Origin: Haloferax volcanii DS2
GTDB lineage: Archaea > Halobacteriota > Halobacteria > Halobacteriales > Haloferacaceae
Direction of reading: 5' to 3'
DNA: 32,000 bases
NCBI RefSeq assembly: GCF_000025685.1
Contig: NC_013966.1
Location: forward strand, 570,001-602,000
The position numbers and the translations under genes are program-made. Shown one piece after another: positions 870-18,930 of this stretch (its first letter is position 1; the number at the start of each line of letters is the position of its first letter). The notes beneath the pieces are model-generated. The model worked only from the letters and a program-made list of their open reading frames with translations. It was not told the origin of the DNA and did no database searches.

Positions 870-1400
870 TCAGCCGTCGAGTTTCGCCTTCGTGTAGGCT
901 TTCAGTCCTCCCTGTTCGACGAGCGACTGGAGGAACTCGGGGAGCGCCTCCGCCTCGTAGGTTTCGTCTCGCGTGTGGTTCGTCACGACGCCCGCGTCGA
1001 GGTCGACGTGAATCTCGTCGTCGTCCTCGATGACGTCCGCGCCGGGGCAGATGAGCACCGGCAGGCCGAGGTTGATGGCGTTGCGGAAGAAGATGCGCGC
1101 GAACGACTGCGCGACGACCGCCGAGACGCCCGCGCCGACGAGCGACAGCGGCGAGTGCTCCCGCGACGACCCGCTGCCGAAGTTCTCGCCGGCGACGACG
1201 AAGTCACCGGGTTCGACCGACTCGGAGAACTCGGGTCTGAGGTCCTCGAAGGCGTGGGTGGCGAGTTCGTCGGGGTCCGACGAGACGATGAATCGCGACG
1301 GCGTTATCTGGTCGGTGTCGATGTTGTCGCCGAAGACCCACGCGCGACCGGGTTCGGCGGGGTCCGGGCGGCCGCCGTCGCCGGCGAACGCGTCCGTCAT
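870..1400 (-). CDS. Aconitase-family hydro-lyase small subunit (LeuD-like, archaeal short type)
   Basis: 176 aa. It has the swivel-domain motif GENFGSGSSREHSP and a 4-nt ATGA overlap (1397-1400) with the upstream large subunit. The substrate is not inferable. Confidence 0.85.
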   Translation of the reverse strand: MTDAFAGDGGRPDPAEPGRAWVFGDNIDTDQITPSRFIVSSDPDELATHAFEDLRPEFSESVEPGDFVVAGENFGSGSSREHSPLSLVGAGVSAVVAQSFARIFFRNAINLGLPVLICPGADVIEDDDEIHVDLDAGVVTNHTRDETYEAEALPEFLQSLVEQGGLKAYTKAKLDG

Positions 1401-2710
1401 GGCAGCACCTCCGCGAAGACCGTGTCGTCGTAGCGTTTCGTCTCGACCTCGCGGGGGTCCGTGATTTCGCCGTACAGCGCGCTCGCGCCGACGGTCGCCG
1501 GACTCGACAGGTAGACCGACGACTCCATCGACCCCTCGCGGCCGGGGAAGTTCCGGTTCGCCGTGGCGAGACAGACGTCGCCGTCGCCGAGGACGCCCTG
1601 ATGGTAGCCCGCACAGGGGCCACAGCCGGCGCTCTGGATGACCGCGCCGGCGTCGGTGAGCGTCTGGAAGACGCCCGTCTGGAGCATGTGCTGGTAGACG
1701 GACTTCGAGGCGGGGACGACGACCAGCCGGACGTTCGGGGCGATGGTCTCGCCTTCGAGGATGTCAGCGACGACCTTGATGTCCTCGTACCGGCCGTTCG
1801 TGCAGGTGCCGACGAACAGCTGGTCGATTTCGGTGCCCGCGACCTCGGTCACGTCGACCGCGTTCTCGGGGTTCGACGGCTTCGAGACCTGCGGGGCGAG
1901 GGCGGCCGCGTCGTAGCTGTGGACCGCCTCGTAGTCGGCGTCGTCGTCGGAGACGAACGCGTCCCCGAGGTCGATTTCGTTCCCGGTCTGGCGTTCGAGG
2001 TACGACTCGGTGCGCTCGTCGGGCGCGACGAGGCCCGTCTTGCCGCCCATCTCGATTGCCATGTTCGACAGGACGAGGCGCTCGTGAATCGGGAGCGACT
2101 CGATGGTACTCCCGGCGTACTCGGCGGCCATGTAGGTACAGCCGTCGAAGCCCACGTCACCGATGAACCGAAGGATGAGGTCCTTCGCGTAGACGCCGTC
2201 TCCGAGGTCGCCGTCGACCTCGAAGCGGAGCGTCTTCGGGACGCGGAACCAGAGTTCGCCCGTCGCGAGCGCGGTCCCGAGGTCGGTCGAGCCGACGCCG
2301 GTCCCGAACGCGCCGATGCCGCCGTAGGTCGTCGAGTGGGAGTCCGCGCCGATGACGAGGTCGCCGGGGCCGACGAAGCCCTCCTCGACGAGGACGGCGT
2401 GGCAGATGCCGTCGCCCACGTCGAACTGGTGTGCGCCGTGTTTCGCCGCGAACTCGCGGACGGCGTTGTGGTTGTTCGCGGCCTGCACCCCGTCTGCGGG
2501 GGCGTGGTGGTCGATGGTGAAGACGGTGCGGTCGGGCGCGAACAGCTCGCCGTCGTCGCCCGTCACCTCGTCGAACGTCTGGAACGCGAGCGGCCCGGTG
2601 ATGTCGTGGGCCATCGCCACGTCCACGTCGGCCTCGACGTAGTCGCCGGCGCGGGCGTCGGTGCCCGATTTCTCCGACAGCAGCTTCTCCGCGAGGGTCT
2701 TGCCGGCCAT
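1397..2710 (-). CDS. Aconitase-family hydro-lyase large subunit (LeuC-like, 4Fe-4S)
   Basis: 437 aa. Motifs seen are GADSHSTTYG, VGTCTNGR and SAGCGPCAG, which supply the three Cys cluster ligands. It lies 1 nt downstream of the HMGL-like gene. Confidence 0.85.
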   Translation of the reverse strand: MAGKTLAEKLLSEKSGTDARAGDYVEADVDVAMAHDITGPLAFQTFDEVTGDDGELFAPDRTVFTIDHHAPADGVQAANNHNAVREFAAKHGAHQFDVGDGICHAVLVEEGFVGPGDLVIGADSHSTTYGGIGAFGTGVGSTDLGTALATGELWFRVPKTLRFEVDGDLGDGVYAKDLILRFIGDVGFDGCTYMAAEYAGSTIESLPIHERLVLSNMAIEMGGKTGLVAPDERTESYLERQTGNEIDLGDAFVSDDDADYEAVHSYDAAALAPQVSKPSNPENAVDVTEVAGTEIDQLFVGTCTNGRYEDIKVVADILEGETIAPNVRLVVVPASKSVYQHMLQTGVFQTLTDAGAVIQSAGCGPCAGYHQGVLGDGDVCLATANRNFPGREGSMESSVYLSSPATVGASALYGEITDPREVETKRYDDTVFAEVLP

Positions 2711-2711
2711 C

Positions 2712-3671
2712 TCAGTCCGCCTCCCCGTCGGCCGCGACGGTGTCGAGGACGCCCTCGACGGTGCCGCCCGCGAGGACGTGACTCGTCAGGCCGAGGCCCA
2801 GTCGGTCGGACACGTCGTGGGCGGCCGCCTCGATGCGGCCGAAATCGACCCCGTGACCGACGCCCATGCGTTCGAGCATCTGGACGAGGTCCTCGGTCGG
2901 CGTGTTGCCGACGCCGGACATGTCGCCGGGGAGGACGACGCCGCCGCCGAGGCCGCAGACCGAGGCGTCGAAGCGGTCGACGCCGACGGCCATCGCGGCC
3001 AGCGTGTTGGCGAGGCTCATCCCGTTCGTGTCGTGGAGATGCAGGCCCATGTCGAGGCCGGGGTGGGCTTCGAACGCGGCGGTGAACCGCTCCGTGATTT
3101 CGACGGGGTTGGCGAGGCCCATCGTCGTCGCCAGCGTCACCTCGTCGACGCCGGAGTCGACGACGCTGTCGACGACCGCGAGCGTCTCCGCGGGGTCGAT
3201 TGCGCCCTCGTAGGGGCAGTAGAAGCTCGTTCCCATCCCGGCTTCGACCTCGATGCCGTGGTCGTGGGCGAGGTCGACGATGTCGTCCATCTCCGCGAGC
3301 ACCTCCTCGCGGGTGCGGTTCTGGTTTTTGCTCGTGTAGGTCTCGCTCACCGTGACGAGCGCGTTCACCTTGTCCACCTCGGCCTCGACGGCGCGCTCCA
3401 TGCCCCGGAGGTTGGGGACGAGCGCCCGGTAGGTCACGCCGTCGCGGCGGGTGATTCGCGTCGCCACCTCGTCGGCGTCCCGCAGGGTCGGGACGGCCTT
3501 CGGGTGGGTGAACGACGAGAGCTCGATTTCGTCCACGCCGGTGTCCGAGAGGGCGTCGATTATCTCGACTTTCTCGTCGGTCGGGACGAACTCGTCGAGG
3601 CGCTGGAACCCGTCGCGAGGCAGCATCTCGACGACGTGGACGCGCTCCGGAAGCGAGTCGAGGAGGCTCAT
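2712..3671 (-). CDS. HMG-CoA-lyase-like (DRE-TIM metallolyase) acyl-CoA lyase
   Basis: 319 aa. The N-terminus reads VEMLPRDGFQ (compare the RDG(L/F)Q motif of HMG-CoA lyases), and a metal-binding GLHLHDTNG motif is present. An ATGA overlap (3668-3671) links it to the CoA-transferase gene. Confidence 0.8.
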   Translation of the reverse strand: MSLLDSLPERVHVVEMLPRDGFQRLDEFVPTDEKVEIIDALSDTGVDEIELSSFTHPKAVPTLRDADEVATRITRRDGVTYRALVPNLRGMERAVEAEVDKVNALVTVSETYTSKNQNRTREEVLAEMDDIVDLAHDHGIEVEAGMGTSFYCPYEGAIDPAETLAVVDSVVDSGVDEVTLATTMGLANPVEITERFTAAFEAHPGLDMGLHLHDTNGMSLANTLAAMAVGVDRFDASVCGLGGGVVLPGDMSGVGNTPTEDLVQMLERMGVGHGVDFGRIEAAAHDVSDRLGLGLTSHVLAGGTVEGVLDTVAADGEAD

Positions 3672-4873
3672 ATCACGTCCTCCGCTTCGAGGTCCGAAAG
3701 CACCGACTCGTCGTAGCCGAGTCGGTCGCGGTAGACCGCGTCGTTGTGTTCACCGAGCGACGGCCCGAGGTGGTCGACCCGCCCCGGCGTCTCCGAGAAC
3801 TTCGGGAAGGCGTTCTGGACGACCGCCTCGCCGAGGTCCGGGTCGTCGACCGTCAGGAACGCCTCGCGCGCCGCGTAGTGTTCGTCGTTGAGGATGTCCT
3901 CGACGTTGTAGACGGGCGCGAGCGTCGCGTCGGCCGCCTCGAACGCGTCGAGCACCTCCTCGCGGCTGTGGTCGTCCATCCAGTCTTGGATGATGGCGTC
4001 GAGTTCGTCGACGTGTTCCAGTCGGTCCTCGTTGGTCTCGAACCGCGGGTCGTCCTTCAGGTCGGGGCGGCCGATGGCGTCGAAGGTCCGTTCTGCGAGC
4101 GGTTGGGCGCTCGCGGAGATGGCGACCCAGCGGTCGTCGCCCGTCCGGTAGACGTTCCGCGGAGCCGACGAGGTCGAGCGGTTGCCCGACCGCGACTCGA
4201 TTGCACCGAGTTGGTCGTAGCGGAGCGGTTGCGGCCCGAGCAGGCCGAAGATGGGTTCGATGAGGCTCGTGTCGATGTACTGGCCGCCGCCGCCGTGGAC
4301 GTCGCGGTGGTAGAGCGCGAACATCACCGCGAACGTCGAGAACAGCGCCGCGATGTTGTCTGCGAGGCCGGTCGGCGGGAGCAACGGGGGCGAGTCGGGG
4401 AAGCCGTTGAGGTAGGCGAAGCCGGACATGGCCTCCGCGAGCGTCCCGAATCCGGGGCGCTCGGAATACGGGCCGGTCTGGCCGAAGCCGGACAGCCGGA
4501 GCATCACGAGGTCGTCGTTGACCTCGGAGAGGCGCTCCCAGCCGACGTTCCAGCGTTCGAGCGTGCCGGGTCGGAAGTTCTCGATGAGGAGGTCGGCCTC
4601 GCCCACGAGGTCCTCGAACACCGCCGCGCCCTCGTCGGTGGAGATGTTCAGGGTGATAGACTGCTTGTTCCGCGAGAGGTACTTGTGCCAGAGGCCGACG
4701 CCGTCTTTCTGTGGACCGAAGCGGCGGATGTGGTCACCGAACGCCGGGTGTTCGATTTTGATGACCGTCGCCCCGAAGTCGGCCATGAAGCGGCCGACGG
4801 TCGGGCCGGATATCATCGACCCGGCTTCGAGGACGACGAGGCCGTCGAGTGGTCCGTTCGTGTCGTTCGTCAT
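3668..4873 (-). CDS. Class III (CaiB/BaiF family) CoA-transferase
   Basis: 401 aa. The N-terminus LDGLVVLEAGSMISGPTVGRFMADFGATVIKIEHP is typical of the family, and the length fits. Confidence 0.85.
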   Translation of the reverse strand: MTNDTNGPLDGLVVLEAGSMISGPTVGRFMADFGATVIKIEHPAFGDHIRRFGPQKDGVGLWHKYLSRNKQSITLNISTDEGAAVFEDLVGEADLLIENFRPGTLERWNVGWERLSEVNDDLVMLRLSGFGQTGPYSERPGFGTLAEAMSGFAYLNGFPDSPPLLPPTGLADNIAALFSTFAVMFALYHRDVHGGGGQYIDTSLIEPIFGLLGPQPLRYDQLGAIESRSGNRSTSSAPRNVYRTGDDRWVAISASAQPLAERTFDAIGRPDLKDDPRFETNEDRLEHVDELDAIIQDWMDDHSREEVLDAFEAADATLAPVYNVEDILNDEHYAAREAFLTVDDPDLGEAVVQNAFPKFSETPGRVDHLGPSLGEHNDAVYRDRLGYDESVLSDLEAEDVI

Positions 4874-4982
4874 GTCGTGTGTGTCTTCTCGTTCTGTGTC
4901 GCGTGTGGTGGTCGTCTGGTGGTGCGTGTTCGCGTCCGCGTGCCCGGTCGCGTGTGGTGGTCGTCGGTGTGCCCGGTTCCGC
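4863..4982. other. 120-nt stretch with no A on the + strand (no U in the minus-strand mRNA), immediately upstream of the CoA-transferase start codon
   Basis: Reading base by base, the last A is at 4862 (the cAt of the start codon complement) and the next A is at 4983. Confidence 0.9.
4889..4955. repeat. Perfect 18-nt direct repeat TCGCGTGTGGTGGTCGTC (4889-4906 and 4938-4955)
   Basis: Read directly. A 9-nt repeat GTGCCCGGT also occurs at 4930-4938 and 4959-4967, and tandem units GGTCGAGTC/GGTCGAGCC occur at 5009-5026. Confidence 0.9.
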
Positions 4983-5068
4983 GTGGCCGGTCAGTCCGGG
5001 TCGTCGGTGGGGTAGGTCGGTCGAGTCGGTCGAGCCGGTCGGATGGTGGCTCCGGCCGTCCGACGGGG

Positions 5069-6469
5069 TCACACCGGCCGGTCGATGTGGGTTCCGTACC
5101 CTTTCGTGCCGACGATGTCGCCGTCGTCGTAGGCGAGTTCGCCCTTCACGACGGTCTGAGTCGGCCAGCCGGTGACTGCTCGGCCCTCGTAGGGGGAGTA
5201 GCCGCTGACGCTGTGTAACAGTTCCGGCGTGACCGTCTTCGTCTCGTCGAGGTCGACGACGGCGAGGTCGGCGTCGCTGCCGACCCTGACGGTTCCCTTC
5301 CTCGGGTAGAGATTGAACGCCTTCGCCGCGTTGGTGCTCGTCACCTCGACGGCGCGTTCGAGCGAGATGCGGCCCTCGTTGACGCCCTCCGAGAGGATGA
5401 GCGGGAGCATCACGGGCGTCGAGGGGAACCCGAGCAGGCTGTCGCGGATGCCCTCGCCGAACTTGTTCTCCGCGAGGTTGGCGCAGTGGTCGGTGCCGAT
5501 AGTCGAGACGGTGCCGTCGGCGAGGCGCTCCCAGAGCGTCTCTTGGTCGGCTTTCGACCGAACCGGCGGGTTGACTTTCATGCGCTCGTCGCACTCCTCG
5601 GTGGTGAGCGCGAGGTAGTGGATACACGTCTCGCCCCACGCCCGGTAGCCCGCGTCGTGGAGCGCGGCGAGTTCGTCGGCCGTCTCCCCGGCGGAGATAT
5701 GGACCGCGTAGAAGCGGTCGTCGTAGCCGTGGACCTTGGCGAGCGCGGCCCCGGCGACCATGCTCTGGGTCTCGGCGTAGCCGGGGAACTCCTCGACCAT
5801 CACCTCGTAGCCCTCGTCGGCGTCGGCGTCGGTGTCGTCGGACTCGGAGGTGACGTAGACGTTGCCGCCGGCGAGCGCGTTCGTGATTTCGACGTTCTCG
5901 GAGTGGTAGCCGAGCGTCGTCGGCACGTCCTGTTCGGCGAGTTTCCGCACGAAGGCGTCGCCGAAGTCGTCGTGCATGTCGCAGTCGACGCCGAACTTCT
6001 CGCGGGCGGCGTCCTTATAGTTCATGTACCACTTGAACGTCGTGATGCCGAACTCCTCGATGATGGCGGGAATCTCCTCGACGTGTTCCATCGAGAGCAG
6101 GCCGAGCGAGAAGAAGTAATCGTGGTAGTAGTTCGGCTCCGCCTCGTCGAAGTAGCCCGGCATGATGTCCTCGTAGGCCCCCGCCCGGCGGAAGTAGTTC
6201 CCGATGGTGGTCACGCCGCCGACGAGGTCGGACTTGGACTCGGACTCGGCGTCCGCCTCCAGTCCGCGGTAGATGCCGTGGTGGGTGTGCGGGTCGATCG
6301 CGCCCGGCAGCACGTGCTTGCCCGTCGCGTCGATTTCCGTCTCGCCCGAGAGCGTGCCGGGCGCGGCGACGGCGGAGATTGTCTCGCCGTCGGCCGCCAC
6401 GTCGGCCGCGAAGCTGCCGTGTTCGGGCGTGACGACGGTGCCGTTCGAGATGACGAGGTCGTGGGTCAT
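5069..6469 (-). CDS. Cyclic amidohydrolase (dihydropyrimidinase/hydantoinase family)
   Basis: I chose the internal ATG at 6469 (MTHDLVISNGTVV...). The 189-aa Arg/Pro-rich N-terminal extension in the track overlaps the upstream gene and looks non-coding. Motifs seen are AIDPHTHHG (HxH), FKWYMNY (candidate carbamylated Lys), YHSEN, VHISAGE and IGTDHCA. An ATGA overlap (6466-6469) links it to the isochorismatase-like gene. Confidence 0.85.
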   Translation of the reverse strand: MTHDLVISNGTVVTPEHGSFAADVAADGETISAVAAPGTLSGETEIDATGKHVLPGAIDPHTHHGIYRGLEADAESESKSDLVGGVTTIGNYFRRAGAYEDIMPGYFDEAEPNYYHDYFFSLGLLSMEHVEEIPAIIEEFGITTFKWYMNYKDAAREKFGVDCDMHDDFGDAFVRKLAEQDVPTTLGYHSENVEITNALAGGNVYVTSESDDTDADADEGYEVMVEEFPGYAETQSMVAGAALAKVHGYDDRFYAVHISAGETADELAALHDAGYRAWGETCIHYLALTTEECDERMKVNPPVRSKADQETLWERLADGTVSTIGTDHCANLAENKFGEGIRDSLLGFPSTPVMLPLILSEGVNEGRISLERAVEVTSTNAAKAFNLYPRKGTVRVGSDADLAVVDLDETKTVTPELLHSVSGYSPYEGRAVTGWPTQTVVKGELAYDDGDIVGTKGYGTHIDRPV

Positions 6470-7125
6470 AGCGTCTCGACCCACTCTTCGACCGCCTCGG
6501 TCTCGAGCACCTCGGCGTACTTCATCCACAGGTCGAGGAGGCCAATCTTGTGCGACGCCTCGATGCGGTCGAAGATGCACTCCTGCGGCAGGACGACGCT
6601 GAAGCCGTTCTGCTTGGCGTCGACCGCGGTGGCCCGGACGCACCCGCTCGTGGAGTTGCCGACGATGATGACCGAGTCGTGGCCGCCGCGGACGAGCCGC
6701 GAGAGCAGGTCGGTCCCGTAGAACGCCGACGCGTAGGATTTGTCGACGACGGCGTCGCCCTCCTCGGGCGCGACCGGGTCGACGATGTCGAGGTCGGGGT
6801 GGTCGGGGTCGTCGTAGCTCGACGGGACGACCCGCGTGTACGTCACCGGAAGCCCCTGCTCCCGCGCGAAGTCGAGGAACGGGTCGATGTGCTCGATGGC
6901 GTCCCACGCGATGTCGCCCATCGCGGTGCGATACTCCTCGACGGCGTCGAGGATGGGGGCGTTCTCGCCGACGATGAGCCGCTGCATGTCGATGACGAGA
7001 ACCATCGGGTTCTCGCCCATGCCGCGGGACTCCCACGACGAGGCGCCCTCCTTGTCGTAACCAGCCTTCGTGATGACCTGTTTATCCTGTTCGGATAGCA
7101 GGTCCTCCCAGATACGGTCTGTCAT
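6466..7125 (-). CDS. Isochorismatase-like cysteine hydrolase (amidase type)
   Basis: Catalytic Asp-Lys-Cys candidates are VLVIDMQ, VVDKSYASAF and VGNSTSGCVRATA. The ATG at 7125 is preferred over 7161, because 7161 sits inside the TATA-like box. Confidence 0.85.
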   Translation of the reverse strand: MTDRIWEDLLSEQDKQVITKAGYDKEGASSWESRGMGENPMVLVIDMQRLIVGENAPILDAVEEYRTAMGDIAWDAIEHIDPFLDFAREQGLPVTYTRVVPSSYDDPDHPDLDIVDPVAPEEGDAVVDKSYASAFYGTDLLSRLVRGGHDSVIIVGNSTSGCVRATAVDAKQNGFSVVLPQECIFDRIEASHKIGLLDLWMKYAEVLETEAVEEWVETL

Positions 7126-7158
7126 GACTCGCTTCGCCTGAGATGCGGTGGCATCCAG

Positions 7159-7166
7159 CATAAAAG
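7159..7166 (-). promoter_or_regulatory. TATA-like box (CTTTTATG read on the minus strand), about 35-40 nt upstream of ATG 7125
   Basis: This is the only AT-rich element in the 66-nt gap between the LLM gene stop (7192) and the isochorismatase-like start. Its position implies a transcript with a short leader. Confidence 0.4.
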
Positions 7167-8169: not shown

Positions 8170-8594
8170 TCCTCCGCCGAGTTCGCGGGCGCGTCCGCGA
8201 CCGGAACGACGCCGTCGACCGCGAGGTCGTTCCAGATGTCGAGGCGCTCGATGAGACCCCGGCGGACGACGTAGATATCGACGTAGCGAACGTCGGAGAA
8301 CTCCGAACCGTCGTTGGCGACGCCGTAGAGCGACCCGACGCTCACGACGGTGTCCCCCGCCTCTATCCAGCGGTCGAACTCCTTTGCCGCCCACTCGTAG
8401 CGCGGTTCGAGGTGCGCGAGGAAGTCGTAGGCCGCGGTCGGTCCCTCGAACGTCGCACCCGGCAGGGAGATGACGGCGTCCTCGGCGAACAGGTCGCCGA
8501 CGGTGTTCCGGCGGTCGTCTCCCATGCGGTCGAAGAACTCCTCGACGATGTCTCGTAGCGAGTCCATGCGGTATGGGGTGTTCTCGACACACAT
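8166..8594 (-). CDS. NTF2/SnoaL-like small protein
   Basis: 142 aa. The pattern IVEEFFDRMGDDRRNTVGDLFAEDAVISLPG...IWNDL resembles SnoaL/ketosteroid-isomerase-like folds. The start could instead be the ATG at 8567 (MDSLRD...). Confidence 0.55.
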   Translation of the reverse strand: MCVENTPYRMDSLRDIVEEFFDRMGDDRRNTVGDLFAEDAVISLPGATFEGPTAAYDFLAHLEPRYEWAAKEFDRWIEAGDTVVSVGSLYGVANDGSEFSDVRYVDIYVVRRGLIERLDIWNDLAVDGVVPVADAPANSAEE

Positions 8595-8607
8595 AGTTTT
8601 TCACTCC

Positions 8608-8634
8608 GATATTCCTGACTATCTGTTATTCCTG
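8608..8634 (-). promoter_or_regulatory. Two direct copies of CAGGAATA(T/A)C (minus-strand reading) upstream of the NTF2-like/LLM operon
   Basis: The + strand reads GATATTCCTG at 8608-8617 and GTTATTCCTG at 8625-8634. The same 10-mer, CAGGAATATC, recurs at 10339-10348 upstream of the transporter operon. Confidence 0.4.
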
Positions 8635-8679
8635 AACGTCCGAGACGGAGCGACAGCGGACGACGCAACGGCGAACGAT

Positions 8680-11724: not shown

Positions 11725-11818
11725 CCGCGACCCGCGACCGCCGTCACGTCAACGAACCGTCTCGAAAGATAGCCACCTTTTATGGGGGTTGCCAACAATT
11801 CCCGAGCGTAGAAACCGC

Positions 11819-12784
11819 ATGGGACACCTAGTCACATCGGTCGCGCCGCTGCCGCTCCAGGGCGGTGGCCTCGGCCGATTCATCGACCCGTTCGCACAGT
11901 TCCTGACCGACATCACCAATCTGGAGCCCGTCCTCCTGCAGCTGATCGCGTTCGGCCTCCTGCTCGGGGGCGTCTACGCGCTGACGGCGCTGGGGCTGAC
12001 GATGATATTCGGCGTGATGGACGTCATCAACTTCGCCCACGGCATCTTCCTCGTCGTCGGGATGTATTCGGTGTGGTTGGTCTCCGAGACGGCCGGCATC
12101 AGCCCGTTTCTCGGCATACCCATCGCCGCCGCGGTGCTGTTCGCCCTCGGGGTGGTCGTCCACATACTCACGGTCGAACCCATCATCGAGGCCCCCCAGC
12201 AGAACCAGCTCATCGCCACGCTGGGCGTCCTTTTCATCATCCAGTCGGCCATCGAAATCGTGTTCACGCCCGACCCCCAGCAGGTCGAACTGTCGCTCGG
12301 GTCGGTGCAGGTCGGCGACGTGTTCATCCCGCTCGGACAGTTCTACGCGCTCGTCATCGCGCTCGGGACGATGCTCGCCGTGCGGGCGTTCCTGAACCGG
12401 ACCGACCTCGGCCGGAAGATTCGCGGCACGGCCGACAACCGCGACGGCGCGCGCTACGTCGGCATCAACGTCCGCCGAATCAACTACCTCACCTTCGGCA
12501 TCGGCGCGGCGTTGGCCGGCGTGGCCGGCGGCTCCATCGCGCTGTTCCAGCGGTTCGACCCCTTCACGGGCGAGACGTACCTCATCAACGCCTTCGTCAT
12601 CGTCATCCTCGGCGGCCTCGGGTCGTTCCCCGGCGCGTTCGTCGGCGGCCTCATCGTCGGGATGATTCAGGTGTTCGGGGGCTACTACCTCCCCGGGACC
12701 ACCGCGCAGGTGCTCATCTTCCTGCTTTTCATCGGGACGCTCCTCGTCAAGCCCGAGGGCCTCTTCGGAGGTGCTGAGGCGTGA
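11819..12784 (+). CDS. Branched-chain-amino-acid-type ABC permease (LivH-like)
   Basis: It contains LLQLIAFGLLLGGVYALTALGLTMIFGVMDVINFAHG and multiple TM helices. The ATG at 11819 is preferred over the tracked TTG at 11789. A TATA-like CTTTTATG lies at 11777-11784. Confidence 0.85.
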   Translation: MGHLVTSVAPLPLQGGGLGRFIDPFAQFLTDITNLEPVLLQLIAFGLLLGGVYALTALGLTMIFGVMDVINFAHGIFLVVGMYSVWLVSETAGISPFLGIPIAAAVLFALGVVVHILTVEPIIEAPQQNQLIATLGVLFIIQSAIEIVFTPDPQQVELSLGSVQVGDVFIPLGQFYALVIALGTMLAVRAFLNRTDLGRKIRGTADNRDGARYVGINVRRINYLTFGIGAALAGVAGGSIALFQRFDPFTGETYLINAFVIVILGGLGSFPGAFVGGLIVGMIQVFGGYYLPGTTAQVLIFLLFIGTLLVKPEGLFGGAEA

Positions 12785-13857
12785 GCGCAATCGAGTCCGT
12801 CCGCGACCGCTACCGGACGTTCGACGACCAGCGGTACGCCCCGCTGGTGAAGGGCGTCGGGCTGTTCGGCCTGCTCGCGGCGCTCCCGACGATTATCGAA
12901 ATCGACGTCGCCGGGATGGAACTCGCGGCGCTGTTGAGCCTGAAAGTGCTCATCCTCACGGTCATCTACGCCTACACGGCGCAGGCGTGGAACATCATGT
13001 CCGGCTACACCGGGCAGTTCTCGTTCGGGCACGCGGCGTTCTTCGGCGTCGGCGCGTACGCCACGCAGGCGCTCGTCGTCGATTTCGCGGTGAACCCGTG
13101 GGTCGGCATGCTCGTCGGCGGCGTGATCGCGGCGGGGTACGGCCTCGTCATCGGCGCGCTGTCGTTCCGCTTCAACCTACAAGGCCACTACTTCGCGCTG
13201 GCGACGCTGGCGTTCGCGGAACTGCTCCGCTTCGTCGTCACCAACATGTCGGAGCTCCGCGGGGCCAACGGCTACTTCAAGCCGTTCCCGCGCGACTACG
13301 GCGCGGAGTACGGCCTCGTCGCCTTCCAGTTCCAGAACGACCTGCCGTACTACTACCTCATCGTCGGCTTCCTGCTCGTCGTGACGCTCGTCTCGTGGGT
13401 CATCAAGAACTCGTGGGTCGGGCTGTACTTCTTCGCCATCCGCGAGGACGAGCGGGCCGCCGCCAGCGTCGGCGTGCCGAGCTTCCGGTACAAGCTCATC
13501 GGCGTCGCCGTCAGCGCCTTCTTCACCGCCCTCGGCGGTGCCTACTGGTCGATGTACTTCAACACCATCCGCCCCGACACCGTGTTCGCGCTGTTCAAGA
13601 ACGTCGAACTGCTCCTCCCCGCCGTCGTCGGCGGCCCGGGAACGCTTTTGGGCCCCATCGTCGGCTCGTTCATCGTCACGCCGGTCAGCGAAATCGCGCG
13701 GACGACGTTCTCCGACATCAACGGCCTCGACCGCATCATCTACGGCGCGTTCCTCGTGGCCATCGTCATCTACTCGCCGCGCGGCGTCGTCAGTTGGCCG
13801 AGTCAGGCGCGCGCCCTCTGGACCCGCGTCCGCGGCGACGAGGAGGTGAGCGAGTGA
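12781..13857 (+). CDS. Branched-chain-amino-acid-type ABC permease (LivM-like)
   Basis: The GTG start overlaps the LivH-like stop (GTGA, 12781-12784). It contains AQAWNIMSGYTGQFSFGHAAFFGVGAY and multiple TM helices. Confidence 0.85.
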   Translation: MSAIESVRDRYRTFDDQRYAPLVKGVGLFGLLAALPTIIEIDVAGMELAALLSLKVLILTVIYAYTAQAWNIMSGYTGQFSFGHAAFFGVGAYATQALVVDFAVNPWVGMLVGGVIAAGYGLVIGALSFRFNLQGHYFALATLAFAELLRFVVTNMSELRGANGYFKPFPRDYGAEYGLVAFQFQNDLPYYYLIVGFLLVVTLVSWVIKNSWVGLYFFAIREDERAAASVGVPSFRYKLIGVAVSAFFTALGGAYWSMYFNTIRPDTVFALFKNVELLLPAVVGGPGTLLGPIVGSFIVTPVSEIARTTFSDINGLDRIIYGAFLVAIVIYSPRGVVSWPSQARALWTRVRGDEEVSE

Positions 13858-14648
13858 TGTCGGCAGACGAGACGAACGCGCAGAGCGTCGACGACCCGGA
13901 CGCCGACATTGACCGCGACGGCGAGCGGATTCTGTCGGTCGAGGGCGTCGGCAAGCGCTTCTCCGGCCTGCAAGCGCTCGACGACGTGGACATGACCGTC
14001 AACCGCGGCGAGATTATCGGCCTCATCGGGCCGAACGGCGCGGGCAAGACCACGCTGTTCAACTGCATCAGCGGGGCGTTCCCGCCGACGAGCGGGACCG
14101 TCAGACTCGACGGCGAGGTCATCTCCGGCCTCCCGGCGCACAAAATCGCGCGGGCGGGGCTGGCGCGGACGTTCCAAATCACGCGTCCGCTGGAGGAGCT
14201 GACCGTCGTCGAAAACGCGATGGTCGGCGCGCACATCCACACGCGCCGCCGGAGCGAGGCGCGCGAAATCGCCATGGAGAACCTCGAATTCGTCGGGCTC
14301 GCGGACAAGGCCGAGGAGGAGGCGGGCGAACTCACCGTGGGCGCACAGAAGCGCCTCGAACTCGCCCGCGCCGTCTCGACGCGGCCGGAAATCCTGCTTC
14401 TCGACGAGATTATGGCGGGTCTCACCCCGTCGGAGTCGAACCAGATGCTCGACCTGTTCCGCCAACTCCGCGAGCGCGGGACGAGCCTCCTCATCATCGA
14501 ACACGACATGAAAGCCATCATGAACATCTCGGACTACGTGAAAGTGCTTGACCAGGGGAAGGGCATCGCCTTCGGCGCGCCCGAGACGGTGGTCGAAGAC
14601 GACCGCGTCATCGAGGCCTACATCGGGGGGTTCGACGTCGATGCTTGA
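13857..14648 (+). CDS. ABC transporter ATP-binding protein (LivG-like)
   Basis: The ATG at 13857 overlaps the LivM-like stop by 1 nt (TGATG). Walker A is GPNGAGKTT and Walker B is ILLLDE. The long upstream part of tracked ORF 12771-14648 is an out-of-gene artefact. Confidence 0.9.
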   Translation: MSADETNAQSVDDPDADIDRDGERILSVEGVGKRFSGLQALDDVDMTVNRGEIIGLIGPNGAGKTTLFNCISGAFPPTSGTVRLDGEVISGLPAHKIARAGLARTFQITRPLEELTVVENAMVGAHIHTRRRSEAREIAMENLEFVGLADKAEEEAGELTVGAQKRLELARAVSTRPEILLLDEIMAGLTPSESNQMLDLFRQLRERGTSLLIIEHDMKAIMNISDYVKVLDQGKGIAFGAPETVVEDDRVIEAYIGGFDVDA

Positions 14649-15345
14649 ACTGCGCGGCGTCCGCGCCGGCTACGACGACATCGAGGTGCTCCACGGCGTC
14701 GACATGCACGTCGACGAGGGCGAAATCGTCGCGCTCATCGGCTCGAACGGCGCGGGCAAGACCACGACGATGCGCACCATCTGCGGCATCCTCTCACCGA
14801 GTCACGGCGAGATAACCTACCGCGACGAGGCGATTCACTCGAAGGCGTCCCACGAAATCGTCGAGCGCGGCATCGTGCAGGTCCCGGAGAACCGCGACCT
14901 GTTCACCAACATGACCGTCATCGACAACCTGCTTCTCGGCGCGCAGACCGAGGAGGCGAAGGCGCACCGCGAGGAGAACCTCGACGAGATGCTGGAGCTG
15001 TTCCCCCGGCTCGCGGAGCGCAAAAACCAGCGCGCCGGCACCATGTCCGGCGGAGAACAGCAGATGCTGACCCTCGCTCGTGCGCTCATGGGCGAACCCG
15101 ACCTGCTCATCCTCGACGAGCCGTCTATCGGTCTCGCGCCGCACCTCGTCCAAGAGGTGTTCGACGTCATCGAGGACATCCACGCGCAGGGCATGACGGT
15201 GCTCATGGTCGAACAGAACGTCCAGCAGACGCTCAAGCTGGCCGACCGCGGCTACGTCATGGAGAACGGCCGTATCAGCATGACCGCCGACGGCGACCAA
15301 CTCCTCGAAGACGAGGGCGTCGTCGAGGCGTACCTCGGGGTGTGA
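14641..15345 (+). CDS. ABC transporter ATP-binding protein (LivF-like)
   Basis: The ATG at 14641 gives an 8-nt overlap with the upstream gene. Walker A is GSNGAGKTT, the signature is MSGGEQQM and Walker B is LILDEPS. Confidence 0.9.
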   Translation: MLELRGVRAGYDDIEVLHGVDMHVDEGEIVALIGSNGAGKTTTMRTICGILSPSHGEITYRDEAIHSKASHEIVERGIVQVPENRDLFTNMTVIDNLLLGAQTEEAKAHREENLDEMLELFPRLAERKNQRAGTMSGGEQQMLTLARALMGEPDLLILDEPSIGLAPHLVQEVFDVIEDIHAQGMTVLMVEQNVQQTLKLADRGYVMENGRISMTADGDQLLEDEGVVEAYLGV

Positions 15346-15346: not shown

Positions 15347-16675
15347 ATGGCCGACGAAGCGCTCGCGTCGTTCGTTTCCGACCTCGACCGGGCCGACCTT
15401 CCCGGGTCGGTCGCAAACCGCGCGTCCCTCGTCGTCGCCGACACCATCGGGGCGGTGCTGGGCGGCGCGTCGGACCCCGCGGTCGCCGCGTTAGCGCGCC
15501 GCTGGGCCGACGAGAACGGCGGCGAATCGACCGTCATGGGAACCGCGGGCGAGCGGACCACCGCGTACCGCGCCGCGTTCGTCAACGCGGCCGCCGGGAG
15601 CGTCCTCGAACTCGACGAGGGCCACCGCTTCGCGGCCGGTCACCCGGCGATTCACGTCCTGCCCGCGCTCCTCGCGGACGGCGAGTCAGCCTACCGCAGC
15701 GGCGACGAGTTCCTGACGGCGTTCGTCGCCGGCTACGAGGCGGCGGTCCGCGCCGCCGAGACGGTGGTCCCGCTCGCGGACGGTCTCCACCCGCACGGCG
15801 TGTGGGGCGGCGTCGGGACCGCCGCGGCCGTCGCCCGACTCCGCGGCCTCGACGCCGAGACGACGCTCGACGCGATGCGAATCGCGGCGAACTACGCCCA
15901 ACACACCCGGTTCGAGGCGGCCACCGAGGGCGCGACCGTCAGAAACGGCTACGTCGGGATGAGCAACCTCTCGGGGCTGCTCGCGGTCGACCAAGCCGAA
16001 TCGGGGTTCACCGGCCTCGACGACGGCGTGGCCCGACACCTCGAACCCGTCGCCGCGGACGGCCCCGACCGGAGCGCCCTCGCGGACGGCCTCGGCGAGC
16101 GCTGGGAAATCGAGCGCGGCTACTTCAAGGTCCACGCGGCCTGCCGCTACACCCACGCCGCCCTCGACGCCGCGGCGCTCCTCGTCGAGGAGACGGGCGT
16201 CGGCGCGGCCGACATCGACGCCGTCACCGTCGAGACGTACCCCGCCGCGGCGGCGCTGTCGGAGCCGGCACCACAGAACGCCTTGCAGGCGAAGTTCTCG
16301 GTTCCCTTCGCCGTCGCCTCGGCGCTGACGACCGGCGAGACCGGCAAGGAGGCGTTCACCGACGAGGCGCTGACGAAGACCGCGCTCGGGTTCGCCCGGC
16401 GCGTGGACGTGGTCGCCACCGAGGAGTTCGCGGCCCGCGCACCAGACGAGCGCGGCGCGCGCGTCACCGTCGAGACGGCCGATGGCGAGCGGTACGCCCG
16501 CGAGGTGCGCGCCGCCCGGGGCGGCGAACACGACCCCGTCACCGAATCGGAACTCCGAGCGAAGTTCGACCGACTCGTCGCGCCCGTCATCGGTGACGGC
16601 GGCGTCGACGGCCTCTGGACCGCGGCGACCGAGCCCGCCGCACCCCGCGTGCTCTGCGCCCTCACTCGGGCCTGA
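15347..16675 (+). CDS. MmgE/PrpD family protein (2-methylcitrate-dehydratase superfamily), paralogue 1
   Basis: 442 aa. The N-terminus ALASFVSDLDRADLPGSVANRASLVVADTIGAVLGGAS is typical of the family. It starts 1 nt after the LivF-like stop. Confidence 0.8.
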   Translation: MADEALASFVSDLDRADLPGSVANRASLVVADTIGAVLGGASDPAVAALARRWADENGGESTVMGTAGERTTAYRAAFVNAAAGSVLELDEGHRFAAGHPAIHVLPALLADGESAYRSGDEFLTAFVAGYEAAVRAAETVVPLADGLHPHGVWGGVGTAAAVARLRGLDAETTLDAMRIAANYAQHTRFEAATEGATVRNGYVGMSNLSGLLAVDQAESGFTGLDDGVARHLEPVAADGPDRSALADGLGERWEIERGYFKVHAACRYTHAALDAAALLVEETGVGAADIDAVTVETYPAAAALSEPAPQNALQAKFSVPFAVASALTTGETGKEAFTDEALTKTALGFARRVDVVATEEFAARAPDERGARVTVETADGERYAREVRAARGGEHDPVTESELRAKFDRLVAPVIGDGGVDGLWTAATEPAAPRVLCALTRA

Positions 16676-16716: not shown

Positions 16717-18090
16717 ATGATTTCACACGAGCCAGTCAGAGACTGGGAACGACAACTGTACGGCTTTCTGACCGACGAATTCCCCGACGACGTGCGCGCG
16801 GACGGCGAGCGAATCGTCGCGGACGTACTCGCGGCGACCGTCGCGGGAGCGGCCGCGCCCCAACACGCGGGCGTCTTCCGCGACGCGAAACTGGCCGACG
16901 GCCCGGCGTCCGTCCTCGGGACCGACCGCCGGGTCGACCCGTCGCAGGCGGCGCTGTTGAACGCGACGGCGGCGATAACACAGGAGATAGAGGAGGGCCA
17001 CAACCGCGGCGGCCACGTGGGCGCGAGCATCGTCGCGGGCGCGGTCGGCGTCGCCGAGGCCAACGACGTCGACGGCGAGACGTTCGTCGAGGCCTGCGTC
17101 CGCTCGTACGAACTCTGCGCGCGCTTCGAGTACGCCATCTTCGCCATGAAGGCGCGGATGAACGAGGCGATACCGTGGCTCGTCCGCGACCCGCACTCGA
17201 CGTGGACGACGCTCGGCCCGGCGCTGACCGCCGCCGTCTGCGCGGGGCAGTCGCCCGACGAGGTGCGCGAGACGGTTCGCACCGCGCTGAACCTCGCGGT
17301 CGTCTCCATGCACGACCCCTTCGCGGAGGGCGCGCCGTCGCGGAACGTCACCGCCGGCTTCTCCGCGCAGGCCGGCGTGAGCGCCGCGACGCTGACCGCC
17401 GTCGGCCTCCGCGGGTCGCCCGCGGCGATGGAGGCCGTCTACGACCCGTTCGAGACGCTCCTCGCGGACGGCGAGTTCGCCGCGCTGTTCGACTCGCTCG
17501 GCGACGACTGGTGGCTCACCGAGGCCTACCAGAAGCCGTACCCGTCGTGTCGCTACACCCACACCCCGCTCGACGCGCTTCGGGACGCCGGCGCGGACGA
17601 CCTCGCGCCCGACGACGTGGACCGAATCGACGTGTACACCTACCGAAACGGCGTCGATATGAGCCACGCGCGGCCCGAGACGCTCACCGCGGCGAAGTTC
17701 TCGACGCCGTACGTCCTCGCCCGCTGGGTCGCGGACGGGCGCGTCGAACTCGACGACTTCCTCGACGACGCGCTCGACGACGAGGCCGTACAGGCGCTCT
17801 CGGAGCGCGTCCACCTCCACGCCGACGAGGCGTTCGAGCGGGCCTTCCCCGACGACTGGGGCGCGCGCGTCGAAGTGACCGCCCGCGACGGGAGCCGCTA
17901 CGTCGGCGAGCGCGAGTACCCCCGCGGCGACTCCCGCGACCCGCTGTCGGAGTCCGACCTCACCGCGCGCAACCGCGCGTTGCTCGCGTTCGGTCTCGGT
18001 GAGGACGCCGCGGATGCGGCGCTCGACGCGCTCTCGTCGGTCGGGGCGAACCCGGTCCGCGAGACCGTCGCCGCGCTGACGCGGCGATAA
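16717..18090 (+). CDS. MmgE/PrpD family protein, paralogue 2
   Basis: 457 aa. It has the same overall architecture as paralogue 1 (DVRADGERIVADVLAATVAGAAAP..., C-terminal Y-P-x-G-D-x-x-D-P-L). The antisense ORF 16723-18099 is a GC artefact. Confidence 0.8.
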   Translation: MISHEPVRDWERQLYGFLTDEFPDDVRADGERIVADVLAATVAGAAAPQHAGVFRDAKLADGPASVLGTDRRVDPSQAALLNATAAITQEIEEGHNRGGHVGASIVAGAVGVAEANDVDGETFVEACVRSYELCARFEYAIFAMKARMNEAIPWLVRDPHSTWTTLGPALTAAVCAGQSPDEVRETVRTALNLAVVSMHDPFAEGAPSRNVTAGFSAQAGVSAATLTAVGLRGSPAAMEAVYDPFETLLADGEFAALFDSLGDDWWLTEAYQKPYPSCRYTHTPLDALRDAGADDLAPDDVDRIDVYTYRNGVDMSHARPETLTAAKFSTPYVLARWVADGRVELDDFLDDALDDEAVQALSERVHLHADEAFERAFPDDWGARVEVTARDGSRYVGEREYPRGDSRDPLSESDLTARNRALLAFGLGEDAADAALDALSSVGANPVRETVAALTRR

Positions 18091-18119: not shown

Positions 18120-18122
18120 AGA

Positions 18123-18140
18123 CGGTAACAATTATTACCG
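18123..18140 (+). promoter_or_regulatory. AT-rich TATA-like core inside the inverted repeat CGGTAA-CAATTA-TTACCG, about 28 nt upstream of ATG 18160
   Basis: Read directly. Its geometry fits a leaderless iclR transcript. Confidence 0.5.
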
Positions 18141-18159
18141 CACTCGATTAGTGATAACT

Positions 18160-18930
18160 ATGAACACGGACGGAAACGACGCGGCGGGAACAATCGGCGC
18201 TACGAAAACCTCGTTCGGCATCGTCGAACACATCAGAGACCACGACGCGAGCGGGGTGTCGGAGATTGCGAACGGCCTCGGCATCTCGAAGAGCACGGCT
18301 CACAACCACCTCAAGACGCTCGCGGAACTCGGGTACGTCGTCAGGCAGGGCGACGAGTACGCGCTGGGCCTGAAGTTCCTCGACCTCGGCGACCACGCCC
18401 GGACGCGACACGCGCTGTACCACGCCTCTATCGGCGAGATGGACGACCTCGTCGAGGCCGTCGGCGAGCGCGGACAGGTGATGGTCGAGGAGAACGGCCG
18501 CGGCGTCTACATCTATCAGGTGAAATCCGAGCAGGGCCTCCAGACCGACTCGCACATCGGGACGACCGTCGACCTCCACACCACGTCGGTCGGCAAGTCC
18601 TACCTCGCGTTCTGCGACGAGGAGCGTCGAAACGAGATACTCGACGGCGAACTGACGCGCCTGACGACGAAGACGATAGACGACCGCGACGCCCTCGAAG
18701 CCGAGTTGGCGACGATTCGCGAGCGCGGCTACGCCTTCAACGACGAAGAGCGCATCACCGGCATGCGGGCGGTCGGCGCGCCGATTCTCTCCGACGACGA
18801 AACCATCCTCGGCGCGATTAGCGTCTCCGGCCCGACCACCCGGATGAAAGGCGAGTGGTACCACACGGAGGTCCCGGAAATGGTGACGCAGGCCGCCCGC
18901 GTCATCGGCATCCGCGCGACGTACTCGTAA
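18160..18930 (+). CDS. IclR-family transcriptional regulator
   Basis: The N-terminal wHTH reads TSFGIVEHIRDHDASGVSEIANGLGISKSTAHNHLKTLAELGYVVRQGDEYALGLKFLDLG. The C-terminal effector domain contains AFNDEERITGMRAVGAPI and ISVSGP. The start may instead be the GTG at 18151. Confidence 0.85.
   Translation: MNTDGNDAAGTIGATKTSFGIVEHIRDHDASGVSEIANGLGISKSTAHNHLKTLAELGYVVRQGDEYALGLKFLDLGDHARTRHALYHASIGEMDDLVEAVGERGQVMVEENGRGVYIYQVKSEQGLQTDSHIGTTVDLHTTSVGKSYLAFCDEERRNEILDGELTRLTTKTIDDRDALEAELATIRERGYAFNDEERITGMRAVGAPILSDDETILGAISVSGPTTRMKGEWYHTEVPEMVTQAARVIGIRATYS

Follow-up and report, generated by a model that had tools for sequence, protein, structure and literature searches.

A conserved divergent gene cluster of Haloferax volcanii DS2 as a possible catabolic system for a small cyclic imide

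Which compound is taken up and broken down by the products of the two diverging gene arms on megaplasmid pHV4 of Haloferax volcanii DS2? The stretch analysed (the window, 32 kb; all coordinates are positions within it) holds 17 intact open reading frames (ORFs) on these arms, established by ORF listing and translation, and a first-pass annotation had been unable to name a pathway for their combination of families. That view was upheld: no enzyme reached the cut-off of an NCBIfam equivalog model, and literature searches returned no paper that describes the cluster. The 17 genes are predicted to form one functional, co-inherited catabolic unit, since the set stays together despite rearrangement and across two domains of life. 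The reading favoured here, tentatively, is that of one inducible, probably IclR-controlled catabolic system for an imported small N-heterocycle, most likely a five-membered cyclic imide and probably a carboxylated one. The candidate imide would most likely be a substituted succinimide or maleimide, with a side chain that probably bears the carboxyl group.

Conservation of the gene set was assessed by a scan of one genome per GTDB species with the alignment of the flavoprotein as sole query, which yielded 80 loci (approximately 45 haloarchaeal and 35 bacterial), and six-frame ORFs of these loci were searched with the window proteins. Co-occurrence within 10 kb of the flavoprotein gene was counted at those loci flanked by 6 kb or more on each side (35 archaeal and 23 bacterial); as about 10 Haloferax species contribute to the haloarchaeal loci, the counts are not independent. 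The isochorismatase-like amidase was present at 34/35 archaeal and 22/23 bacterial loci, the amidohydrolase at 33/35 and 21/23, and PrpD at 33/35 and 20/23, with two PrpD genes at 25/35 and 13/23 respectively. NTF2 and LLM (luciferase-like) genes were found at 33 and 32 of the 35 archaeal loci, and an IclR gene at 26. The CoA-transferase, LeuCD and HMGL accompanied the flavoprotein at 32, 31 and 31 archaeal loci and at four, three and one of the 23 bacterial loci. The deeply conserved core consists of the flavoprotein, the amidase, the cyclic amidohydrolase and PrpD; LeuCD, CoA-transferase and HMGL, together with NTF2 and LLM, are largely archaeal additions.

Fifteen or more haloarchaeal genera carry the set, with varying flanks and orders, and parts of it occur in Alpha- and Betaproteobacteria, Deinococcota and further bacteria. 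Halorubrum ezzemoulense carries the same 17 families and an SDR gene between insertion sequence elements and unrelated genes. In Natrinema versiforme the set is reordered, with the IclR gene divergent from a run of flavoprotein, amidase, amidohydrolase, CoA-transferase, HMGL, LeuC and LeuD genes, followed by PrpB-like and PrpD genes and then by NTF2, LLM, ABC importer and PrpD genes. Halovivax retains a stand-alone core of six genes (amidase, amidohydrolase, CoA-transferase, HMGL, LeuC and LeuD). The chromosomal loci of Salinirubellus and Halorarius (L004, L005) hold two to three amidase-amidohydrolase pairs each, in addition to an NTF2-LLM-AtuA-DUF4387 group, and have a CoA-transferase with an HpcH-type lyase instead of HMGL; several such pairs per locus suggest a family of related substrates. 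The usual bacterial order is PrpB-like lyase, amidase, LivHMGF, PrpD, flavoprotein, PrpD and amidohydrolase, as in Methylobacterium nodulans, and Variovorax combines this layout with a CobW GTPase.

It is scarcely credible that the arms, or sub-blocks of them, are unrelated megaplasmid operons juxtaposed by chance. A chance origin would accommodate the 195-bp gap in the minus arm, the 164-bp gap with its own TATA-like element in the plus arm, and the transporter types and regulator families that differ among lineages. It would not account for the same families lying together with other flanks in at least 15 archaeal genera, in the Natrinema-type order, and in Alphaproteobacteria, Betaproteobacteria and Deinococcota, and it was rejected on the co-occurrence counts across rearranged loci. 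The single functional unit proposed in the first-pass annotation is borne out by genes co-conserved under rearrangement and in both archaea and bacteria.

The gene map was derived anew and agreed with the earlier description in all 17 genes and their Pfam assignments, in the 224-bp spacer between the arms and in every start/stop overlap (Table 1). Every family call across the 17 proteins passed the Pfam gathering score. Minus-arm overlaps of the form TCAT (ATGA on the minus strand) occur at 1397, 3668, 6466 and 8166, that at 6466 being the 4-nt stop/start overlap shared by the amidase and amidohydrolase genes. Plus-arm genes overlap at 12781 (GTGA), by 1 nt at 13857 and by 8 nt at 14641-14648. 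Longer gaps separate the amidohydrolase and CoA-transferase genes (195 bp) and the flavoprotein and substrate-binding protein (SBP) genes (164 bp, with a TATA-like element); on account of these gaps each arm may be transcribed as two or more units. In a 98%-identical plasmid, RefSeq places the starts of four genes (isochorismatase, NTF2, LivH and IclR) a small number of codons away from those given here. Plasmids of three other Haloferax species carry near-identical copies of the locus: H. alexandrinus (98%), H. lucentense (98%) and H. gibbonsii (95%). The amidohydrolase is deposited as ADE01688.1 (D4GRN1) and PrpD1 as ADE01759.1.

Table 1. Features of the divergent cluster and its flanking transporter gene (positions in the window; a dot marks non-coding sequence)
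Feature	Position	Strand	Remark
MFS transporter gene, 3' part	1..803	+	convergent with LeuD-like gene; annotation from 98%-identical H. alexandrinus plasmid
LeuD-like small subunit, aconitase-family hydro-lyase	870..1400	-	Pfam Aconitase_C
LeuC-like large subunit, [4Fe-4S] hydro-lyase	1397..2710	-	Pfam Aconitase
HMGL-like acyl-CoA lyase	2712..3671	-	Pfam HMGL-like
Class III CoA-transferase (putative dicarboxylic acid substrate)	3668..4873	-	Pfam CoA_transf_3, full length
Non-coding spacer, 195 bp	4874..5068	.	divides minus arm
Hydantoinase/dihydropyrimidinase-type cyclic amidohydrolase, proposed ring opener	5069..6469	-	Pfam Amidohydro_1/3
Isochorismatase-family cysteine amidase, proposed NH3-releasing deamidase	6466..7161	-	Pfam Isochorismatase
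Luciferase-like (LLM, F420-type) oxidoreductase	7192..8169	-	Pfam Bac_luciferase
SnoaL/NTF2-like protein, isomerase- or hydratase-type fold	8166..8594	-	Pfam SnoaL_2
Divergent control region, 224 bp	8595..8818	.	promoter element CGGTAGTTTTACG at 8783-8795
FAD_binding_2 flavoprotein, proposed C-C dehydrogenase/ene-reductase	8819..10252	+	Pfam
Tat-lipoprotein SBP	10417..11724	+	Pfam Peripla_BP_6
LivH	11789..12784	+	Pfam BPD_transp_2
LivM	12781..13857	+	Pfam BPD_transp_2
LivG	13857..14648	+	Pfam ABC_tran
LivF	14641..15345	+	Pfam ABC_tran
MmgE/PrpD-family protein 1 (PrpD1)	15347..16675	+	Pfam N and C domains
MmgE/PrpD-family protein 2, divergent paralogue	16717..18090	+	Pfam
IclR-family regulator	18151..18930	+	Pfam HTH_IclR + IclR_C

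The chemistry of the substrate is approached most directly through the two hydrolases. The nearest solved structures to the amidohydrolase are D-hydantoinases and dihydropyrimidinases (DHPases; 200 bits to 1yny), and its solved relatives at E ≤ 1e-20 are exclusively hydantoinases, DHPases, allantoinases and dihydroorotases. A motif search located DPHTH (HTH at 61-63), FK146WYMNY, YHSE, VHIS and TDH, so that the DHPase/D-hydantoinase set of metal ligands (HxH, Lys, two His and Asp) is present, with a Tyr five residues past the Lys; the ligand roles of these motifs are putative and assigned as in the DHPase family. The protein scored 246.8 bits against the DHPase equivalog TIGR02033 (cut-off 393) and 169 against the ErtD equivalog (cut-off 600), and in RefSeq is named merely 'amidohydrolase/dihydroorotase family protein'. 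On a plasmid of Halomicrococcus gelatinilyticus (L093:12283-15392) a bona fide hutU gene (817 bits) overlaps by 4 nt with the gene of a DHPase-like amidohydrolase sharing 60% identity with that of the window, and histidine-ammonia-lyase-like, trimethylamine-methyltransferase-family and corrinoid-protein genes lie nearby. The locus may encode a variant histidine- or hercynine-type pathway with the hydrolase in place of HutI. Given the coupling of this close paralogue to hutU, the probable substrates of its branch of amidohydrolases are five-membered rings that bear propionate as a side chain, for example imidazolone- or hydantoin-propionate.

The amidase found its best solved relatives in 4l07/4l08 and 3ot4/3uao (76-80 bits), which we take to be the maleamate amidohydrolases Ami and NicF, with N-carbamoylsarcosine amidases (CSHases) scoring about as well (64-75 bits). 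Its Asp-Lys-Cys triad (D58, K141 and C174) aligns with those of 4l07, 3ot4, 26st and 1nba; of 82 orthologues, all have D58 and K141 and 81 have C174. An FDR motif aligns with ADR or GDR in the same four structures, its D198 being present in 81 of the 82 orthologues, and the Arg of this motif is presumably the binder of the substrate carboxylate, as in CSHase (Arg202, Arthrobacter) and NicF. From the triad and the D-R motif it follows that the substrate would be a primary amide or a ureide, with some three atoms between this group and a carboxylate, as would result from the opening of a five-membered imide or hydantoin.

An imide appears to fit better than a ureide because two hydrolyses remove its sole nitrogen, whereas a hydantoin or dihydropyrimidine keeps an amino group for which the cluster has no conserved remover. 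Neither aminotransferase, deaminase, ammonia-lyase nor amine oxidase was found among the recurrent archaeal neighbour families, for which Pfam annotation was partial, and all enzymes besides the two hydrolases fall in carboxylate or CoA-ester families. Were the substrate a ureide (a 5-substituted hydantoin or a dihydropyrimidine), a hydantoinase/DHPase and an N-carbamoyl-amino-acid amidohydrolase would yield an unusual amino acid whose skeleton is degraded by the remaining enzymes. This is unlikely, though several observations speak for it: D-hydantoinase/DHPase models and structures are the best matches of the amidohydrolase, the amidase resembles N-carbamoylsarcosine amidases no less than 4l07 and 3ot4, the paralogue in hutU/ammonia-lyase context suggests imidazolone- or hydantoin-propionate chemistry, and a hut operon lies approximately 3 kb from the Haloferax cluster. 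That hut neighbourhood is not kept outside Haloferax, however, and both equivalog cut-offs are missed widely. No aminotransferase, deaminase or ammonia-lyase is co-conserved that would deal with the leftover amino group, and neither dihydropyrimidine dehydrogenase, beta-ureidopropionase nor carbamoylase occurs among the 17 genes or the recurrent neighbour families. A product such as Glu or Asp would moreover make the other ten enzymes superfluous, yet LeuCD, the CoA-transferase and HMGL lie on the same strand directly downstream of the hydrolases. The cyclic amide or ureide put forward in the first-pass annotation therefore stands as regards ring hydrolysis followed by deamidation, with the ureide the less likely of its two forms.

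The flavoprotein is 45% identical to bacterial cluster members, far above any characterised relative. Its best matches are the flavin domain of the Shewanella flavocytochrome c3 (Fcc3) fumarate reductase, then urocanate reductase and then ketosteroid dehydrogenases. On alignment to Shewanella Fcc3, Arg402, His504 and Arg544 correspond to Tyr304, Phe409 and Tyr452, and the proton-relay residues Glu378 and Arg381 to Ala and Met; the sole substrate residue kept is His365 (His267), which is Tyr in bacterial flavoproteins. Among 88 orthologues Tyr304 is invariant, and Phe409 and Tyr452 are each found in 87. The highest scoring PDB entry is a variant with Tyr at position 402, which we take to be the R402Y mutant. 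Since Tyr stands in place of both substrate arginines and Phe in place of His504, the flavoprotein is predicted not to be a fumarate, succinate or urocanate enzyme, and its identification as fumarate reductase, TcuA or urocanate reductase was ruled out on these active-site residues. The 3-ketosteroid Δ1-dehydrogenases (KstD) have a tyrosine-lined site and desaturate next to a neutral carbonyl. By analogy with this site, the flavoprotein may be a C-C dehydrogenase or ene-reductase acting beside an imide, amide or keto carbonyl.

Neither PrpD paralogue matched any NCBIfam model at E ≤ 1e-5, those of 2-methylcitrate dehydratase included. PrpD1 is nearest among solved structures to IDS epimerase and to B. 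subtilis IRG1, and is 34-36% identical to the bacterial PrpD encoded upstream of the flavoprotein gene; the second paralogue gave weak matches to solved structures. No methylcitrate synthase gene was present among the recurrent neighbours. A true methylcitrate cycle was rejected, as the PrpDs miss the curated models and no such synthase recurs.

The flavoprotein and PrpD proteins bear also on whether the cluster degrades a tricarballylate-, aconitate- or itaconate-type acid, possibly imported as its amide or imide, with a TcuA-like flavoprotein, PrpDs as aconitate dehydratase or decarboxylase, and the CoA-transferase and lyase as an itaconate/citramalate-type exit. This is improbable. The flavoprotein does match the TcuA model (180.5 bits), PrpD1 resembles cis-aconitate decarboxylase/IRG1, variant clusters carry a RipC-like lyase with a CoA-transferase, and bacterial versions occur with TctC, TRAP, AcnA and PrpB-like genes. 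The TcuA cut-off of 369 bits is missed, however, no TcuB-like gene was identified by Pfam among the 17, and the carboxylate-binding Arg/His set of succinate and fumarate enzymes is lacking in the flavoprotein. A tricarboxylate would furthermore leave the two hydrolases, the tightest partners of the flavoprotein, unexplained. The two readings are not exclusive, as this one overlaps with that of an imide.

Of the hydro-lyase subunits, the LeuD-like protein passed the NCBIfam LeuD/DmdB subfamily model TIGR02087 (187.7 bits, cut-off 109) and fell below the leuD equivalog (192, cut-off 246). The LeuC-like protein passed the IPMI/homoaconitase subfamily models and fell below LEU2 (442, cut-off 611); the Fe-S cluster cysteines C303, C363 and C366 are present. 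At all loci the neighbours of LeuCD are catabolic, and the leuA/leuB context of a 3-isopropylmalate isomerase was not found; AcnA takes the place of LeuCD in some bacteria. The CoA-transferase has YfdE, succinate-hydroxymethylglutarate CoA-transferase and benzylsuccinate CoA-transferase as its nearest solved structures. The HMGL-like lyase passed the HMG-CoA lyase subfamily model NF004283 (282, cut-off 246), is nearest to HMG-CoA lyases among solved structures, and possesses the catalytic motifs PRDG18 and HLH211; its motif reads CGLGGGV, against the cysteine-bearing GLGGCP of characterised HMG-CoA lyases.

The module for C-C cleavage is interchangeable between lineages. Most haloarchaea have the class III CoA-transferase with the HMG-CoA-lyase-subfamily protein, Salinirubellus and Halorarius a CoA-transferase with a RipC/CitE-like lyase, and bacteria and some haloarchaea a PrpB-like protein. 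The PrpB-like proteins, which belong to related loci and not to the window, scored 236-304 bits against an equivalog cut-off of 354 and show the KxCGH loop as KQCGH, KKCGH or KRCGH. PrpD, LeuCD and the lyases are paralogues of 2-methyl-cis-aconitate and dimethylmaleate enzymes, and would imply conversion of a substituted maleate to a substituted malate followed by C-C cleavage. The sequence of desaturation, hydration, activation and cleavage outlined in the first-pass annotation fits in its general form, with cleavage modules that may be exchanged (PrpB-like, or CoA-transferase with RipC/CitE-like lyase); its flavoprotein step requires revision, the enzyme not being of succinate/fumarate type.

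A dimethylmaleate-like hydratase and lyase raise the question of a reductive nicotinate-type pathway, as in Eubacterium barkeri and Azorhizobium, in which 6-hydroxynicotinate would be reduced by the flavoprotein or LLM, opened by an enamidase-like step and then processed by a dimethylmaleate-hydratase-like LeuCD and a dimethylmalate-lyase-like enzyme. The LeuD subunit lies within the 'LeuD/DmdB' subfamily, PrpB/Dml-like lyases stand beside many versions of the cluster, and reductive ring opening of 6-hydroxynicotinate is a known reaction, summarised in PMC9304392. Such a pathway is nevertheless very improbable here: no molybdenum hydroxylase, B12 mutase or hydroxymethylglutarate dehydrogenase/dehydratase was detected by Pfam among the 17 proteins, the solved relatives of the amidohydrolase are all of the four kinds listed above, and the amidase would be left without a role. 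A pathway of the E. barkeri type was rejected since hydroxylase, mutase and enamidase-like hydrolase are missing from the 17 genes.

Beyond the family assignments, the steps of the proposed imide pathway are inferred from sequence. The Tat-lipoprotein SBP and LivHMGF-type importer would bring the compound into the cell, where the hydantoinase-type amidohydrolase would turn the imide into a half-amide, and the translationally coupled amidase would cleave the primary amide to give NH3 and a substituted succinate- or maleate-type di- or tricarboxylate. The tyrosine-lined flavoprotein would add or remove a C=C bond next to a carbonyl, and the substituted maleate might be hydrated, dehydrated or isomerised by the two PrpD paralogues. 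The NTF2-like protein and LLM reductase could act as archaeal accessories that adjust the side chain or double bond. Hydration by the LeuCD-like Fe-S hydro-lyase would produce a substituted malate of citramalate type, which the class III CoA-transferase would activate and the HMGL-type lyase split into acetyl- or acyl-CoA and a 2-oxo acid. In bacteria, a PrpB-like lyase acting on the free acid might replace both hydration and CoA-dependent cleavage.

The SBP begins with RRRFLK followed by the lipobox LAGC, and reached no NCBIfam model. TRAP (DctPQM) or TctC systems stand in for the ABC importer in several bacterial loci; TRAP and TctC transporters are known as carriers of carboxylates, and the transported substrate is therefore probably an acid. 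The NTF2 gene lies always directly upstream of the LLM gene, the pair being present at 32-33 of the 35 archaeal loci, and the best NCBIfam matches of the LLM protein are F420-dependent LLM families, all below cut-off.

Several points weigh against the cyclic imide and the pathway built on it. The cluster amidohydrolases of archaea and bacteria share 32-35% identity, barely above their identity to canonical hydA, and for this enzyme orthology across the two domains is therefore tentative; by tblastn, cluster-type amidohydrolases scored 200-243 bits and canonical hydA 140-197, a modest excess. The amidase scores nearly equally against both groups of relatives, so that sequence alone cannot separate imide from hydantoin chemistry. 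The roles given to the flavoprotein, both PrpD proteins, NTF2 and LLM are assigned by analogy. If the ring were already unsaturated, the flavoprotein, whose gene is the most conserved, would have no obvious task.

As to the origin of such an imide, there is a small chance that the cluster is the missing microbial route by which monopyrrolic end products of chlorophyll, bacteriochlorophyll, haem or bilin are mineralised; these products are 3-methyl-4-substituted maleimides and succinimides, among them hematinic acid, its dihydro form and methyl-ethyl-maleimide. The suggestion would be in keeping with the carboxylate transporters of some versions, the probable propionate-ring substrate of the hydrolase paralogue, and hosts that live with phototrophs. 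Hematinic acid and methyl-ethyl-maleimide reportedly occur in plants. Opening and deamidation of the imide would yield a 2-methyl-3-substituted maleate, which if derived from hematinic acid would be the one-carbon homologue of 2-methyl-cis-aconitate and might be handled by PrpD, aconitase/LeuCD and a PrpB-like or CoA-dependent lyase. Succinimide-type rings from reduced pyrroles could be brought to maleimide level by the flavoprotein, and side chains of vinyl or ethylidene type could be modified by NTF2 and LLM.

The cluster belongs to none of the known pathways with which it was compared. In the cyclic-imide pathway of Blastobacter sp. A17p-4 an imidase, a half-amidase and a maleate hydratase act in succession. 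The logic of this pathway and of fungal HxnM/HxnN (PMC9304392) is alike, in that an imide is opened, the half-amide deamidated to release NH3 and the dicarboxylate processed. Unlike these imidase pathways, the cluster has a DHPase-type amidohydrolase and an isochorismatase-type amidase in place of a PuuE-like imidase and an amidase-signature enzyme, and has in addition a flavoprotein, PrpD paralogues and a C-C cleavage module of its own. Kindred logic is also seen in the NicF step of aerobic nicotinate degradation. Reductive pyrimidine and hydantoinase-carbamoylase systems likewise pair a DHPase/hydantoinase-type opener with an NH3-liberating amidase, but the cluster lacks PydA/PydC and the usual carbamoylase, and its hydrolases are set amid carboxylate enzymes with no removal of an amino group.

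For the carboxylate steps, the methylcitrate cycle is similar in that PrpD, an aconitase-type enzyme (LeuCD or AcnA) and PrpB-like KxCGH paralogues accompany the core, and differs in that the cluster PrpDs match no NCBIfam model, the PrpB-like proteins fall below the equivalog and haloarchaeal cleavage would proceed via a CoA ester. The lower nicotinate pathway of E. barkeri employs the dimethylmaleate hydratase DmdAB and 2,3-dimethylmalate lyase; it too has a LeuCD-type hydratase acting on a substituted maleate and then a PrpB-related lyase, whereas the upstream nicotinate enzymes are absent from the cluster and the archaeal exit is a CoA-transferase with an HMGL-type lyase. Known citramalyl-CoA systems include the (R)-citramalyl-CoA lyase and CoA-transferase of Chloroflexus and the Ict/Ich/Ccl-RipC route of itaconate degradation. 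These share with the cluster a class III CoA-transferase and a lyase of the HMGL or HpcH family, which in the known systems convert a citramalyl-type CoA ester to acetyl-CoA and pyruvate; their hydratase is of MaoC type and acts on the CoA ester, while that of the cluster is of LeuCD type and would act on the free acid. The FAD_binding_2 enzymes (flavocytochrome c3, urocanate reductase, TcuA and ketosteroid dehydrogenases) have in common with the flavoprotein the fold and FAD-binding motifs, and the tyrosine-lined site resembles that of KstD-type dehydrogenases; compared with flavocytochrome c3 and TcuA, the flavoprotein is without haem, FMN or a TcuB partner. The families themselves are known; the new elements are their combination and the active-site variants, which have not been described before.

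Tight co-inheritance of the gene set should mean that the substrate is an abundant natural compound, and as H. volcanii DS2 is the main archaeal genetic model, both genetics and biochemistry are directly feasible. Identification of the substrate would provide functions for large unannotated branches of the PrpD, FAD_binding_2, DHPase-like, isochorismatase-like and LeuCD-like families, and would correct widespread misannotations as 'dihydroorotase', '3-isopropylmalate dehydratase' and 'hydroxymethylglutaryl-CoA lyase'. It would also define a route by which N-heterocycles yield nitrogen and carbon in hypersaline, marine and soil habitats. Were the substrate a tetrapyrrole-derived maleimide, the open end of global chlorophyll and haem degradation would be closed.

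Related cassettes were encountered in other contexts. In Thalassobaculaceae-type loci (L059-L064, L083; L071:5367-7781) the amidase-PrpD-flavoprotein genes have as conserved companions an Amidase (PF01425) gene, a gene with a weak Polysacc_deac_1 match, a fusion of nitroreductase and methyltransferase, and a TRAP transporter. Polysacc_deac_1 and Amidase are the families of, respectively, the cyclic imidase HxnM and the amidase HxnN of fungi (PMC9304392). The AtuA/DUF4387 pair stands also beside the amidohydrolase in Thalassobaculaceae (L060, L061, L071, L083); these two proteins gave no NCBIfam match and a literature search on them yielded nothing. Plasmid pcSHIWSC3 of Shinella (L011:7902-21334) carries an AcnA-amidohydrolase-isochorismatase operon followed by aldehyde dehydrogenase, ABC transporter and class III aminotransferase genes, and beside this cassette a plasmid-borne hemC (hydroxymethylbilane synthase). 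On Aminobacter pMDW1 (L094:8029-13215) an amidohydrolase and an isochorismatase gene occur with octopine/nopaline-dehydrogenase-family, DpsA-like, 4-oxalocrotonate-tautomerase-family, RidA, cytosine deaminase and CobW genes, probably representing a different pathway with the same two-step hydrolysis. In Haloferax massiliensis (NZ_CSTE01000007.1, overlapping loci L016/L025) the first PrpD gene is followed by PrpD-LivF-LivG on the opposite strand and not by PrpD2-IclR, the cause being an inverted duplication or else an artefact of assembly.

At the LeuD end of the cluster, an MFS homologue adjoins LeuD or sits within the cluster in 18 archaeal loci, including those of Salinibaculum, Halogranum and Halorarius. 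The MFS gene may on this account be an 18th member and second transporter of the system, outside the cluster bounds stated so far. In Haloferax a hutHIGU operon lies at a distance of approximately 3 kb from the LeuD-like gene (H. alexandrinus, L001:1-5238; in H. volcanii this region is beyond the left end of the window), with HTH, VOC and MFS genes between; a functional tie to it was rejected, the arrangement being specific to Haloferax and absent beside the cluster in Halorubrum.

Searches with Rfam detected no RNA family in the window. Alignment of the spacer between the NTF2 and flavoprotein genes from 11 genera revealed a single strongly conserved element, CGGTAGnTTTACG (8783-8795), with invariant C/G/T/A columns at this promoter motif and at the ATG; its TTTA lies about 29 nt ahead of the flavoprotein ATG. 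This spacing matches haloarchaeal BRE/TATA promoters of leaderless mRNAs, and the element is a putative promoter of this kind for the flavoprotein gene. Three tandem repeats of 17-18 nt, ATGCAACAGCRAGSGAT, occupy the middle of the spacer (8663-8714), and two 14-nt repeats, TCYGWTATTCCTGA, extend across the expected minus-arm promoter (8605-8635). H. volcanii and H. gibbonsii share both sets, which other genera lack and which may be lineage-specific operator sites or recent duplications; the 17-nt tandem repeats were rejected as conserved operators for that reason. The regulator of bacterial versions is mostly GntR. The spacer dividing the minus arm contains direct repeats of 25 and 11 nt, and its plus strand is G/T-rich with extreme strand asymmetry. 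It is a possible internal promoter, and a gap occurs at the same position of the minus arm in Halorubrum (177 bp) and Natrinema (86 bp).

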